DNA of 64,000 nucleotides, from the IMG/VR virus record IMGVR_UViG_3300033494_000001; one strand, given 5' to 3'. A program made the translations under genes and the position numbers. The DNA is from a virus (lineage: Duplodnaviria > Heunggongvirae > Uroviricota > Caudoviricetes). Below the pieces are notes generated by a model. The model was given only the letters and a program-made list of their open reading frames with translations, made no database searches and was not told where the DNA came from. Of the stretch, positions 23,231-48,796 are shown in pieces. Each line of letters starts with the position of its first letter. Within the stretch, counting starts at the first letter, position 1.

Positions 23231-24849
23231 GACTGTATGGAGTTTTTATGGTCATTAGTTTACAAGTATTACAATAGTAATAATGTGGACTTATTCCATG
23301 TCGTGAATGAAACATTTTACAAAACCAAATAGCGCCAAACCATTTTATTAATAGTTTTTTCATGCTAAATTTTTTATTAATTTATAATTTTTAATTTTTT
23401 CAATTGCGGCTTTTTCATTTAAGGTTCCGCAATAAACCGAGATATCATTTTGGAAATCATATCCATCATAGTATCCTAAAGCATCTCTATATATTCCACA
23501 TGAATATCTTCGACCCATACTTTGTTCTACTATATCTTTCATTTCTTTTAGATTGTCTGCTGTTACATTCTTTTTAGAAGTAACAATAAGGATTCCAGAA
23601 TCAATTGCTATTGAGAAATCGTCTATCTTCATCGAAAACAGCTTTTTTAAATAAGTAAATAGGAACATAAAACATTGTTGAAGCAAATTTTAATTTATTA
23701 GTTGCAGTTCTATAATCTTTAAGAGCACGTTTAAATTCAGGTATTGGTTCAGAAAATGGATATTTTTTATCTTGTCGCCACTGTAATGCTGCATGTAATG
23801 CATTATAAATATTGGTAAAATATCCACCAATTCTATATGATTCTTTAGCATTTTCTTTTAATTCTTTCTTTGATTTTAAACAATGAAGAGTCCAACAATC
23901 TCCATTATTTGTAATAGTAAAATCTTTTTCGATTATTTCCATTATTCCTCCATTTCAGTATTTTCATCTTCAATTTCTTCATCAGAATCTTCATCAGAAG
24001 TTTCTTTTTTATCTGTTTTAGGAGCTTTATAAATATATGTTACTAAATCAATAAGTTTATCTACTTCAGCTGTATACATATCCATATATTCAACTGCTTT
24101 AAATGTACCTGTTAATTTTGATAACTTAAAACTTACTATCTTTTGTATACATATTTCAAAAGGCATCCCATACCCATCAATCTTCATATCAATGCGTTCA
24201 TTTTCTTTTCCCTCATTGACAATAGTCGGCAATTTTAGATTAAAAAATGGAGTAGATTTAACCTGCTCCATTTCAAAATCTAAGTCTTTAATAATAATCA
24301 TTATGTTAATTTAATTCTTAATTTCCGAAGTTCAAAAGTTACTTCAATAATGTTTTCAATAAAACTATTTGTAAATTCTGAATAACCCCAAGTATCTTCA
24401 TCTGCAAAGACTAATAAATCTTTGTAAGCTTGTTTAAGATGTTCCCTTGCACTATCTAATTTTTCATCGGCTGTTGTTCTTACTGACATGATTTTAAGTT
24501 TTTAAAGTGTTACATTCCCATCAATCTACCAAATGATTCTTTCATTTGATACATACCTACAGTGCGCAATGCATGTTCAAATATATTATAAACATTACTT
24601 TCAGGAGATAACTCCTCTTCATAAATAATAACGGCGTAATCGGTAACATGATTAGGCGCAAGTTCATGTCTGAATCGTATAAAAGGACTTTTAACATGTT
24701 CTTGGCCTTGACTACCACTATCACTAAATCTATCTAACTCTAAATTAAAAGATAGATGTTTTGCTAATTGAATTAATTCTTTTTTTGTCATTTATTAAGT
24801 ATTAAAAAATAAAAAAGGAGAACCCATTACTGGATTCTCCTATTGCTTG

Positions 24850-24934
24850 TACTCGGGATGGGAGTCGAACCCACACTCTCACAATGAGAAACGGATTTTA
24901 AGTCCGTCGCGTCTACCAATTCCGCCACCCAAGC
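24850..24934 (-). tRNA. tRNA-Leu(TAA), type II
   Basis: Anticodon arm ACGGA-CTTAAAA-TCCGT, long variable arm, T-arm GTGGGTTCGACTCCCAT, acceptor pairs with two GU. Confidence 0.7.
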
Positions 24935-24937
24935 ATG

Positions 24938-25012
24938 TCGCCCAACTAGGACTCGAACCTAGACATCTTCTGGCTCAAAACCAGACGTGTTAACCAATTA
25001 CACCACTGGGCA
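24938..25012 (-). tRNA. tRNA-Gln(TTG)
   Basis: Anticodon arm TCTGG-TTTTGAG-CCAGA, T-arm CTAGGTTCGAGTCCTAG. Confidence 0.65.
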
Positions 25013-25111
25013 ATTTAAACATTAGTTAGAAGTAATGTGCCCTAATTCTTCTTATTTAACTCCGTTTAGTTATGCACTGAAATTCCAAGGACTGACGGAA
25101 ACTAATGTTTG

Positions 25112-25198
25112 AGGGCAGGGTAGGATTCGAACCTACGATGGAGCTTTCACTCACCAGATTAACAGTCTGGACTTTTCGGCCTCTAAAGCAACCCACCC
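25112..25198 (-). tRNA. tRNA with anticodon GTT and an apparently long (17-nt) variable arm
   Basis: Anticodon arm CCAGA-CTGTTAA-TCTGG, T-arm GTAGGTTCGAATCCTAC, 87 nt total; combination of Asn anticodon with type II architecture is unusual. Confidence 0.5.
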
Positions 25199-25247
25199 TT
25201 TTTATCTATGAATTTATACATTCATAATATCGACTATTTAATAATTG

Positions 25248-25321
25248 GGTGTATGAAGGGACTCGAACCCTCTAATATTGGCACCACAAACCAACCCCTT
25301 GACCAGTTCGGGATCATACAC
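25248..25321 (-). tRNA. tRNA-His(GTG)
   Basis: Anticodon arm TTGGT-TTGTGGT-GCCAA, T-arm GAGGGTTCGAGTCCCTT, acceptor GTGTATG/CATACAC. Confidence 0.6.
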
Positions 25322-25323
25322 AG

Positions 25324-25397
25324 AGCAGTAGGTGGGGTTCAAACCCACGACATCCAGCTTGGAAGGCTAGCACTCTAATCAACTGAGCTACTACTGC
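25324..25397 (-). tRNA. tRNA-Gly(TCC)
   Basis: Acceptor GCAGTAG/CTACTGC, anticodon arm CTAGC-CTTCCAA-GCTGG, T-loop GGGTTTGAACCCC. Confidence 0.7.
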
Positions 25398-26437
25398 TTA
25401 TTTTAATAAACTATATCTGAAAATCGTTTAAAATTTTCAATATAGCTCCTAATATTATCTCTACCAACGGTATTTGCTGATTGCATACTATACAGAGGTA
25501 CTGCTACATTTAACAACTCACATTGAGCACAAAGAAACTTTGCAGCATCATATCCTGTTGTTTCTGTGCCTAAATCATGATCAAAACAAACTGCATCTGG
25601 AATGCCGTTAGTTCTTAACCAATCACAAAAATCCTCATAATTTTGTACCCATATAGTTTGAAAGGGTCGTTTAATTGGACTAAAAATTAACCAATCAGAT
25701 GTAAAAGGATCTCGACTATCATCTAGCCATAAAAGTGTTTTCATAGTTTTATTAGTTTAATATATTGTCTATTTGAAGGTGGACCATACCATAGAATAAT
25801 CCAATTTTCAAGTGTGTAATCAAATCTTGGACTGAATCTATGTTCAATAAAAACTATGATAAAAAGGATTAAAATTAATGTTACCATAAATCCTCGCTTG
25901 TTAATGTTCCTCCAATTAAAGGTTTAGTTAATTGTCCTATTCTTTTCACTAATTCCAAAGCATCTTCTCTATTAAGAAAGCGATTCTTTGTAGTTAAAAA
26001 ACCTTGTATTGTTTTATCACCATACATATAAAATGGATATCCAATTTGTGATTGTTCAAAAATACTACCATGTCTCCATCCACTAAATACAATTCCTGTG
26101 TTTATATTAAATGGTTTATGAGTATAATGTTTTCCATCATCAATCCAATTAGCAGCGCACATAACATACTCTATTTCGCCATTGTCTAAATGGGCTTGTA
26201 ATCGTTGAAAATCTACCATATTTCAATATCTAAGATTTGTTCAACAACATCACAAAACTTATCCGCAGGATCCTCTCCAGTAAATAACCAATAAAATATT
26301 GGAATTATTACACTTATTAGAATTATAAACGCAAGAAGTAAAAGAGGTATTTGTATTATTCTATTTAACATAATTTATTTATTTAATGTTTGTACCCAAT
26401 GTAGGACTCGAACCTACACACCTTTCGGCACTTGATC

Positions 26438-47938: not shown

Positions 47939-48069
47939 TCCGGAGACCTGGACTCGAACCAGGACGCTTCTACAAGCTGCAGTTTCTAGTTGAAGTAACT
48001 AATATATAGCTCTATTGAGAAAGAATAACAGTAACGGACTGCTGTGTCTACCAATTTCACCATCTCCGG
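47939..48069 (-). ncRNA. tRNA-Leu-like gene (type II) with a ~50-nt insertion in the anticodon loop
   Basis: Perfect acceptor CCGGAGA/TCTCCGG, Leu-like D-arm GGTGAAATTGGTAGACAC, anticodon stem GCAGT...ACTGC enclosing ~56 nt, variable hairpin GCTTGTAGAAGC, T-arm CCTGGTTCGAGTCCAGG; the insertion contains a copy of the 21-nt AGAAGTAAC motif. Confidence 0.5.
47991..48011 (+). repeat. 21-nt motif copy 9 (TGAAGTAAC-N6-ATAGCT), inside the tRNA-Leu-like insertion
   Basis: Matches consensus AGAAGTAAC-N6-7-ATAGCC. Confidence 0.5.
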
Positions 48070-48115
48070 AATTAAAAAGGAAATTTTATGAGTAATCTTT
48101 TTTATAGCAAAATGA

Positions 48116-48137
48116 AGAAGTAACTTCATAAATAGCC
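48116..48137 (+). repeat. 21-nt motif copy 10 (AGAAGTAAC-N7-ATAGCC)
   Basis: Exact consensus; ~45 nt 5' (minus-strand sense) of the tRNA-Leu-like element and 6 nt 3' of the tRNA at 48144-48217. Confidence 0.55.
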
Positions 48138-48143
48138 TTTTTG

Positions 48144-48217
48144 TCGGCACAGAAGGAATCGAACCTCCGACCATATCTCCCTGAAGATATTCGCTTTCCC
48201 TACTAGCGCGTGTGCCG
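48144..48217 (-). tRNA. type I tRNA with an 8-nt anticodon loop UUCAGGGA (contains UCA) - candidate TGA-decoding tRNA
   Basis: Perfect acceptor CGGCACA/TGTGCCG, D-arm CGCT...AGCG, anticodon arm ATATC-TTCAGGGA-GATAT (18 nt instead of 17), T-arm GGAGGTTCGATTCCTTC, A73; assignment uncertain. Confidence 0.4.
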
Positions 48218-48294
48218 TGTTCCTCCCCCATTCAATATCCTTCTAAGGGGGAGGGTTTTTCCTAGCTTTACTTTTAAACGAATTTAAGCTGACA

Positions 48295-48328
48295 ATGTCT
48301 GAGCATCTACCAACTGATGTACGGGGCC
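48295..48328 (-). ncRNA. tRNA 5'-half-like element (GGCCCCG acceptor strand + D-arm)
   Basis: rc reads GGCCCCGTACATCAGTTGGTAGATGCTC; its acceptor strand is the exact complement of the 3' acceptor strand at 48472-48478, but that element lies on the 5' side (permuted order). Confidence 0.3.
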
Positions 48329-48469
48329 TTAATAAATTCTTCCGCATTAATCTGCGTATTGCACTTGGATTAAATTATGCAGCTTTATTAATATAGCTTT
48401 GGTACCTCTGAATTAATAACTCTTTTAACCTGTCACGCGTTCCGCAATAAGGAATTGTAAACAGTTGTG

Positions 48470-48503
48470 GAATTGAGGCCCCGACGGGGTTCGAACCCGC
48501 GGC
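48470..48503 (-). ncRNA. tRNA 3'-half-like element (T-arm + CGGGGCC acceptor strand)
   Basis: rc reads GCGGGTTCGAACCCCGTCGGGGCCT; partner 5' strand found ~150 nt downstream rather than upstream. Confidence 0.3.
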
Positions 48504-48796
48504 TTTCAGATTTAGTGCTTCGTTTAGTATTTTCTAGGGCTTGAGACTCAATGATTACACTTCACTCACAACACTGAGGAATAGTCTAAATTACAGGGAT
48601 GTAATTAAACTGAATGTAACACTATTGAGTGTATTTTTATTTATCGTTTTCGATTAAGGACTGTAAACCGAGAAGAAAGGATTTAATTTCACCAGGCGTT
48701 AAAACAATATATTCTTTATTTAAACGTATAGTGACTACAAGTTTGTCTTTAACAACTTCTAAGACAGAACTTCCACTTCTTACTTGGGTTACCATG

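Follow-up and report, generated by a model that had tools for sequence, protein, structure and literature searches.

Does the uneven use of in-frame TGA codons in a phage genome follow the module in which a gene lies, or the kind of protein that it encodes? The question is raised by IMG/VR record IMGVR_UViG_3300033494_000001, a 64,000-nt stretch of Caudoviricetes DNA (the window; all coordinates are positions in the whole window), in which every gene lies on the minus strand and GC content is 28–38%. A first-pass annotation made from the sequence alone read TGA as Trp, saw the recoded genes as concentrated in an island of tRNA genes, and proposed that a temporal class of genes is gated by a phage-encoded suppressor tRNA. 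We find that the unevenness of TGA follows gene class, not module, and that TGA recoding is nearly confined to nuclease genes over 73 kb, a class that is not absolute. TGA has two meanings in this phage: stop for ordinary genes, and Trp for a small set of genes.

Six genes of the window have TGA as their only Trp codon. Five of these lie in the tRNA island and the sixth in the replication module:

26730–27167, minus strand: HNH homing-endonuclease-type gene with an N-terminal helix-turn-helix (Pfam); 3 TGA (27117, 27033, 26859), 0 TGG
28904–29299, minus strand: PD-(D/E)XK_5 nuclease (Pfam E = 6.8e-21, the match covering both TGA); 2 TGA (29276, 29216), 0 TGG
30671–31327, minus strand: GIY-YIG homing endonuclease (Pfam); 5 TGA (31244, 31097, 30806, 30704, 30698), 0 TGG
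39628–40404, minus strand: rare secreted or outer-membrane-like protein with a signal peptide; 2 TGA (40351, 39952), 0 TGG
41348–41908, minus strand: HNH_2 endonuclease (Pfam); 3 TGA (41807, 41582, 41378), 0 TGG
7839–8450, minus strand: GIY-YIG endonuclease, group I intron-associated, in the replication module (Pfam); 2 TGA (7977, 7887), 0 TGG

Together these genes hold 17 TGA codons in 1,141 codons (1.49%) and no TGG; the 100 ordinary genes (15,784 codons) hold 232 TGG (1.47%) and no in-frame TGA. At a rate of 1.47%, the probability of zero TGG in 1,141 codons is ~5e-8 by our own calculation. In-frame TGA is present in ~8% of the genes of the window, comprising 6 of the 7 nuclease genes and 2 of the 101 others (Fisher p = 1e-7), and removing the nuclease genes leaves TGA in one island gene and one non-island gene. 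A count of TGA per gene, the check that had been suggested, gave a density that is strongly uneven. The island does hold 15 of the 19 sense TGAs (24.8–48.6 kb), as the concentration noticed at first implied, but 34 ordinary island genes (4438 codons, 68 TGG) of ~39 in all are free of TGA, and we therefore assign the recoding to gene class and not to module. The Ter block was correctly described as uninterrupted and contains no in-frame TGA. The replication module had been called nearly TGA-free, a description that missed the GIY-YIG gene at 7839–8450 with its two TGAs and the fact that 8 of the 11 genes ending in TGA lie in 0–24 kb.

Reading through TGA brings out, on the minus strand, all five island open reading frames (ORFs) reported previously, and they are real because TAA and TAG are absent across 938 codons of ~30% GC DNA. 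The six TGA-only ORFs are all intact, with no TAA, TAG or frameshift. Matches to the nuclease domains (GIY-YIG, HNH and PD-(D/E)XK) exceed the curated Pfam cut-offs and span the TGA positions, so the HNH and GIY-YIG labels hold (Pfam HNH, GIY-YIG and HNH_2). The label given to 39628–40404, outer-membrane-protein-like, finds no backing in a Pfam or PHROG family, and this protein has only 3 distant homologues among 1.8 billion representatives. The ORF-free gaps of the window yielded no further small TGA genes. TGAs at 26223–26250 were considered as sense codons and rejected, as they lie upstream of the start of gene 25881–26219.

Alignments show that in-frame TGA encodes Trp. The GIY-YIG gene at 30671–31327 was compared with its closest homologues (47% identity), in which Trp codons (TGG) stand opposite three of its five TGAs, and the second TGA of the outer-membrane-like gene aligns with a Trp of its homologue P0253, which is 48% identical (P### are working labels for homologous proteins, and L### for the compared loci or contigs of strain variants, relatives or other phages). 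The TGA at codon 14 of a helicase gene, described below, corresponds to an invariant Trp encoded by TGG in 5 relatives. Other readings of the codon were examined and set aside. Selenocysteine was rejected on the alignment of the TGAs with Trp and on tRNA-Sec matches far below threshold, and TGA = Gly (code 25) on aligned residues that are Trp or aromatic. Pseudogenes or sequencing error were rejected because no stop codon but TGA breaks these reading frames and because separate assemblies show the same TGAs.

TGA also works as a true stop. Eleven of the 100 ordinary genes terminate at TGA, with TAA the dominant stop:

2764 (2764–2766), 15743, 32935 and 55926, minus strand: TGA stops that overlap the start of the next gene as ATGA
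8461, 10610, 17539, 20798, 23360, 23601 and 52251, minus strand: other TGA stops

For 6 of the 8 TGA-ending genes tested, the orthologue in a relative stops with TAA 0–5 codons from the TGA of the window, and the remaining 2 have no orthologue in the compared loci. Sense and stop TGAs are alike at −1 and +4, and a context-dependent meaning of TGA was rejected on that ground.

Two genes carry a single TGA near the N-terminus, in addition to the six above. Both codons, 3943–3945 and 12547–12549, had been noticed earlier and are confirmed as lying inside genes:

11287–12588, minus strand: XPB/Rad25-like SF2 helicase; codon 14 is TGA (12547–12549)
3529–3978, minus strand: PDDEXK_15/RusA-like resolvase-type nuclease, after the primase; codon 12 is TGA (3943–3945)

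The helicase offers no ATG, GTG or TTG from its codon-14 TGA to beyond Walker A and DEVH. The Trp site belongs to an invariant KKW motif ('KKWIQxGCRGT') in the five relatives, and the TGA is present in four independent assemblies, one of them from a strain 98.7% identical, so it is neither an error nor a dead allele. The resolvase-like nuclease likewise has no alternative start ahead of its domain. Its orthologues in L096, L104 and L106 each have TGA at codon 11–12, and an internal Trp is TGG in all four genes; the leader peptides are poorly conserved, and the relatives that keep this TGA have a family-A DNA polymerase (PolA) or ribonucleotide reductase (RNR) 54–64% identical to that of the window. 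Because a position-specific TGA is retained beside a conserved TGG, the comparison argues that the opal codon in the leader is itself under selection. In L103 the same locus is occupied by a non-orthologous DUF1064 nuclease with TGA at codon 13. Since the helicase and resolvase-like TGAs are kept across assemblies and relatives, the phage would itself have to decode TGA. A PDDEXK_15-like nuclease gene of the contig MT835492, from an amber-recoded gut phage, has TAG in frame at codon 6 (L012, 30671–31240) and, its true start being uncertain, perhaps offers an amber equivalent of the leader TGA described here.

Nucleases written only in TGA recur in relatives at 64–73% PolA identity. In L103 the position of the window gene 7839–8450 is likewise taken by a GIY-YIG gene (4 TGA, 0 TGG); L102 has a DUF723/zinc-finger nuclease (3 TGA, 0 TGG), and L104 a PD-(D/E)XK gene (2 TGA, 0 TGG).

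Free-standing homing endonucleases are known from phage tRNA clusters (SegB of T4, the HNH endonucleases of the T5 tRNA region), and SegB reportedly lodges between tRNA genes. All five island TGA genes of the window are 0–33 nt from a tRNA gene. The HNH gene at 26730–27167 sits 10 nt downstream of tRNA-Leu(tag) (27178–27260), the PD-(D/E)XK_5 gene is flanked by tRNA-Tyr (29319–29404) and a weak tRNA-like element (28792–28881), the 3′ end of the GIY-YIG gene at 30671–31327 abuts a weak tRNA-Ser(gct) call, and the outer-membrane-like gene lies 33 nt downstream of tRNA-Arg(acg). The fifth, HNH_2, adjoins a broken tRNA gene:

41930–41965, minus strand: what remains of a tRNA-Met gene (its 5′ half), broken within the anticodon loop at the start of the HNH_2 cassette

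It is the lodging of free-standing endonucleases among the tRNA genes that makes the island look rich in TGA. HNH_2 is missing from the strain variants L099 and L101 (91% and 97% identical), which carry an intact extra tRNA-Met at the HNH_2 site with co-converted flanks. At least one of the endonuclease genes, HNH_2, is a recent mobile insertion, HNH_2 being the only gene for which presence/absence polymorphism was seen. None of the contigs L001–L011 and L097–L101 spans ~40.9–41.0 kb, though the region is repeat-free, and by its coordinates the 52-kb contig Ga0316611_1000055 should span it. The closest homologues of the island GIY-YIG gene, in human-gut, amber-recoded phage contigs, also lie between tRNA genes and carry in-frame TAG, not TGA; endonucleases of tRNA clusters therefore adopt the recoded stop of the resident phage.

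The GIY-YIG gene of the replication module is associated with an intron:

7661–7902, minus strand: group I intron catalytic core (Rfam RF00028, 110 bits)

The core comes after exon 1 of a gene for a P-loop AAA ATPase (8461–8757), and its 5′ part is overlapped by the GIY-YIG gene. Downstream of the core come ~370 nt without an ORF and then an HNH-like gene in TGG dialect (6706–7287). The likely second exon of the ATPase would come only after this gene, in the 6276–6626 region. The intron and the HNH-like gene may be a composite or twin insertion.

The island within which most of the TGA genes lie was searched for a decoder:

24849–42318, minus strand: tRNA island; 16 ARAGORN tRNAs, Cys(gca) and Pro(tgg)-like by Rfam, and weaker Ser, Ser, Ile(tat) and Asp calls

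The phage suppressor tRNA on which the proposed gating depended was not found among the >20 tRNA genes of the window. Relaxed calls over 24849–53204 give a tRNA set that covers every amino acid but Trp. No RF1, tryptophanyl-tRNA synthetase or other code-change machinery was found in the window, in 9 kb beyond it or in ~100 kb of the relatives' loci. In published opal-recoded Zeta crAss-like genomes the suppressor tRNA is sometimes to often undetectable (PMC12386605; PMC7886860).

Several RNA genes of the window depart from the usual tRNA form. The gene at 48143–48217 is well formed, with an 8-nt anticodon loop, UUCAGGGA, for which ARAGORN gives the four-base anticodon CAGG; it resembles +1 frameshift suppressor tRNAs of the sufA6/sufB2 type and overlaps a probably spurious 81-aa ORF. 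As an opal suppressor it was rejected, on its Pro-like body (C1-G72, A73) and a loop best read as CAGG. The tRNA gene at 36095–36180 (Rfam 43 bits) combines the loop CTTGGAA (UGG, Pro) with an apparently long variable arm and A73, a combination unusual for tRNA-Pro. In a tRNA-like gene at 52877–52951 a GAAA tetraloop closes the anticodon arm, which hence has no anticodon, and at 53088–53204 there is a sub-threshold match to YrlA (Y-RNA-like; 35.5 bits against a cut-off of 69) whose T-arm is perfect; the two share a gap in the Ter block that holds no ORF. Further perfect T-arms (GGTTCGAnTCC), uncalled by default ARAGORN, were found at 26401–26417, 28792–28881, 40600–40687, 41046–41116, 47938–48069 and 48484–48500. 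Some of these sites give weak calls (Arg-like, Ile(tat), Asp, and Asn with a 47-nt insert), and others resemble minihelices of acceptor and T-arm. A transfer-messenger RNA (tmRNA) gene lies at 46455–46788 (Rfam 66 bits), its ARAGORN tag having the C-terminus ...MRLAA. Opal suppression by the phage, if it occurs, would extend translation past the TGA stops of host mRNAs, and we speculate that the phage tmRNA might then add ribosome rescue. A stretch of ~1 kb (37615–38688) lacks ORFs in all frames, whichever single stop codon is reassigned, and shows no Rfam match and a folding z of −1.9; within it a 5′ half-tRNA (~38360–38409) breaks off past the anticodon loop and in this recalls the tRNA-Met remnant, and the stretch may be the scar of an earlier endonuclease insertion.

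To judge from its proteins, the window is the replication/tRNA/auxiliary arm of a large uncultured crAss-like (Crassvirales) phage, Zeta-like in style, because of its polymerase match, its crAss domains and the large contigs of its relatives. PolA (12678–14660) has its best matches in crAss-like phages at 35–42% identity, and the best crAss-like match of RNR is at 44%. The proteins of the window include a crAss001_48/Sequestin domain, DnaB and a Toprim primase, which is followed by a PDDEXK nuclease. Signature genes for the major capsid protein, portal, TerL and giant RNA polymerase are not in the 64-kb window, and among GenBank phages there is no close relative, PolA and RNR being only 35–44% identical to those of any crAss-like phage. 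Contigs carrying relatives with 54–78% PolA identity are 163–172 kb, and the longest contig in the window's own polymerase cluster is 168.9 kb, which together suggests a genome of ~165–170 kb; the relatives have a GC content of 27.6–28.6%.

The same phage was present at 98.7–100% identity in several JGI, ENA and Logan metagenome assemblies. Its contigs end at ~−9 kb (just past RNR), ~41.0 kb and ~63–64.6 kb, and the 9 kb before the window start encode a DNA-transfer-protein homologue and then RNR, all in standard dialect and with no tRNA. Scans of IMG/VR with three window proteins returned no relatives. In a metagenome scan with an RNR fragment, bacterial RNRs at ~40% identity dominated and the phage was not in that set, and a contig scan with a PolA alignment returned only mis-binned relatives with 10-kb flanks. 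Relatives (L104, L105, L106, L108 and P0148) were binned in metagenome-assembled genomes labelled Ignavibacteriaceae, Lachnospiraceae, Bacteroides and Saccharibacteria/Saccharimonadaceae; these mixed labels are probably binning artefacts, and the host signal is inconsistent. The auxiliary block (48797–61921) encodes DUF7873, adenylosuccinate synthetase, TerC, vWA/TerF-like, PRTase_3, TerD and Band_7 proteins, together with a 703-aa protein for which the gene tables record no Pfam match, all in standard dialect. Other genes of the island are cREC_REC (25403–25744), YqeY (27297–27743), DUF4402 (39084–39554) and glucosaminidase (44032–44430).

We consider it probable that opal recoding is partial in this Crassvirales phage and that suppression there holds down or postpones the translation of nucleases. 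The TGA genes share a strand with, and pack closely among, genes that would be early or middle and tRNA genes. Host RF2 would block nuclease translation at TGA until an opal-suppressing activity appears; this TGA-to-Trp activity would be a suppressor tRNA or other factor encoded outside the window, and the output of DNA-cutting and DNA-remodelling enzymes would thereby be delayed or kept low. Of the recoded temporal class proposed at first, the meaning of TGA as Trp, its uneven use and the fit of ordinary genes to the standard code survive; the recoded unit is a scatter of nuclease genes, a secreted protein and a helicase, and not a contiguous module. Several observations count against suppression as the explanation. 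There is no tRNA with a UCA anticodon on either strand and no tRNA-Trp in the 64-kb window, and no opal suppressor tRNA in ~100 kb of the relatives' loci or in the 9 kb beyond the window. The HNH-like gene at 6706–7287 (PHROG 3377) has 6 TGG and no TGA, and in L103 an HNH/NUMOD4 gene has all its Trp codons as TGG. Third codon positions are richer in AT in the TGA genes (lower GC3), whose codon usage correlates at 0.92 where the null gives 0.965 ± 0.012; such a bias fits weakly expressed genes under AT pressure, and equally foreign genes that circulate in a pool richer in AT. A strictly late switch also sits badly with a 'late' gate on a replication helicase. Neither the window nor any compared locus contains a structural or lysis gene, and we infer the timing of expression entirely.

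A more specific form of suppression has a modest chance of being correct. The recoding would be a gene-specific switch on DNA-cutting and DNA-remodelling enzymes, not a block-wise late code change, and the decoder would not be a canonical tRNA(UCA). The selected opal codon of the resolvase-like gene, its reappearance in a non-orthologous nuclease, the TGA-only endonucleases and the TGA stops were brought for the switch; the several non-canonical tRNA-like genes and the lack of a tRNA-Trp in the window were brought for the decoder. It is unlikely that the endonuclease genes are imported passengers, homed from fully opal-recoded donors and untranslatable in a suppression-free phage, their TGAs recording origin and not regulation. 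The presence or absence of HNH_2 among strains 91–97% identical, with co-converted flanks, would fit such a history, as would the lower GC3 and deviant codon usage of the TGA genes, the window without a suppressor tRNA and the coexistence of TGG-dialect endonuclease-like genes. The strongest argument against it is the conserved TGAs of core genes, namely the invariant Trp of the helicase, which is TGA in all assemblies of the phage including the diverged strain, and the resident resolvase-like gene, which keeps its N-terminal TGA across relatives. Passengers would also leave unexplained six TGA-only ORFs intact in AT-rich DNA and the recurrence of TGA-only nucleases in relatives.

Leaky readthrough, in which host tRNA-Trp occasionally reads UGA so that TGA attenuates toxic nucleases to a few percent of output, needs no suppressor, in keeping with the failure to find one in the window. 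It would also suit the resolvase-like nuclease and helicase, whose single TGA at codons 12–14 beside other Trp codons that are TGG suggests that TGA is costly and persists at one site alone. We hold it to be a little less plausible than the passenger account: genes with 2–5 TGAs would give roughly 1e-3 to 1e-8 of normal output, no special readthrough context is seen, and full replacement of TGG by TGA at a normal Trp frequency means that TGA is nearly neutral in those genes. Gating at the level of the island, with the tRNA-island genes as a temporal class under an island-encoded suppressor tRNA, is improbable and, for the module as a whole, already contradicted. The model has been published in general form (bioRxiv 10.1101/2021.08.26.457843; PMC7886860) and the island does hold most sense TGAs, but 34 of its ~39 genes are TGG-only, TGA genes also occur at 3.5, 7.8 and 12.5 kb, the island encodes no suppressor tRNA, and what is left once nucleases are set aside is divided between one island and one non-island gene. 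A code-4 host, lacking RF2 and reading TGA as Trp everywhere, is very unlikely because TGA also works as a stop. Low GC and the alignment of TGA with Trp are as such a host would predict; the 11 genes that end in TGA (four as ATGA, 6 of 8 tested with orthologues stopping at TAA) and the 232 TGG codons retained are not. Moreover, TGA is found in ~8% of genes, compared with ~90% of genes recoded where the host of a phage is itself recoded (Borges et al., bioRxiv 10.1101/2021.08.26.457843), and the crAss-like affiliation points to Bacteroidota hosts.

Reading TGA as Trp in these genes mends the annotation. Gene calls under code 11 fragment six genes and truncate two, hiding five nucleases and cutting Walker A off the helicase. 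The window is a clean case of one codon serving as both stop and Trp in the same close-packed, same-strand gene array. The restriction of sense TGA to nucleases supports the idea of recoding as a restraint on toxic or selfish genes, and the N-terminal opal codon of the resolvase-like gene could be a simple reporter of the onset of suppression in crAss-like phages. Partial stop-codon recoding has been reported before from gut phages, and this phage adds one more case; what deserves further attention is the conserved leader opal codon of the resolvase-like nuclease, together with the strict link of recoding to nucleases.

The nearest known systems are the code-switch gut phages (Ivanova 2014; Yutin 2021, PMC7886860; Borges 2021/2022), which share with the window TGA as Trp, low GC and early genes compatible with the standard code. 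In code-switching phages ordinary genes are compatible with the standard code (bioRxiv 10.1101/2021.08.26.457843; PMC7886860), and the code-switch model of Borges et al. (bioRxiv 10.1101/2021.08.26.457843) includes an Agate group I intron endonuclease in an early gene that prefers TGA over TGG, the same restraint on a nuclease that we propose here. Agate phages thus resemble the window both in an intron-associated endonuclease written in TGA within an early gene and in TAA as the dominant stop. Unlike in these phages, the recoded genes here are nearly all nucleases in 73 kb, TGA still stops ~10% of genes, and no suppressor tRNA is present among the window's >20 tRNAs. Code-switch phages are defined by a recoded late block, whereas the window covers only the replication/tRNA/auxiliary arm. 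The Zeta crAss-like phages (Lera, PMC12386605) are similar in genome size (~160–190 kb), GC (~30%), number of tRNAs (20–30), tRNA-metabolism genes in the replication block, strain-variable homing endonucleases and opal recoding, sometimes with no detectable suppressor tRNA. The window differs from them by its Ter block, its tmRNA and several odd tRNA-like RNAs, and by the 35–44% PolA/RNR identity that separates it from any crAss-like GenBank phage.

T4 SegB and the T5 HNH endonucleases offer the closest likeness for the endonucleases, with GIY-YIG and HNH genes wedged among tRNA genes and with presence or absence in close strains accompanied by co-conversion of flanks, here for HNH_2, for which cleavage and homing would follow by analogy. 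T4 and T5 use the standard code, whereas the endonucleases of the window have TGA for Trp. In the A1 protein of Q-beta, host tRNA-Trp reads UGA at ~3–7%. A single UGA read as Trp sets a low protein output there, as it might in the resolvase-like nuclease and the helicase, but the UGA of Q-beta is at the end of the coat gene and yields a C-terminal extension, whereas the UGA of the window genes is at codons 11–14, before the catalytic domain, and other genes of the window have up to five TGAs.

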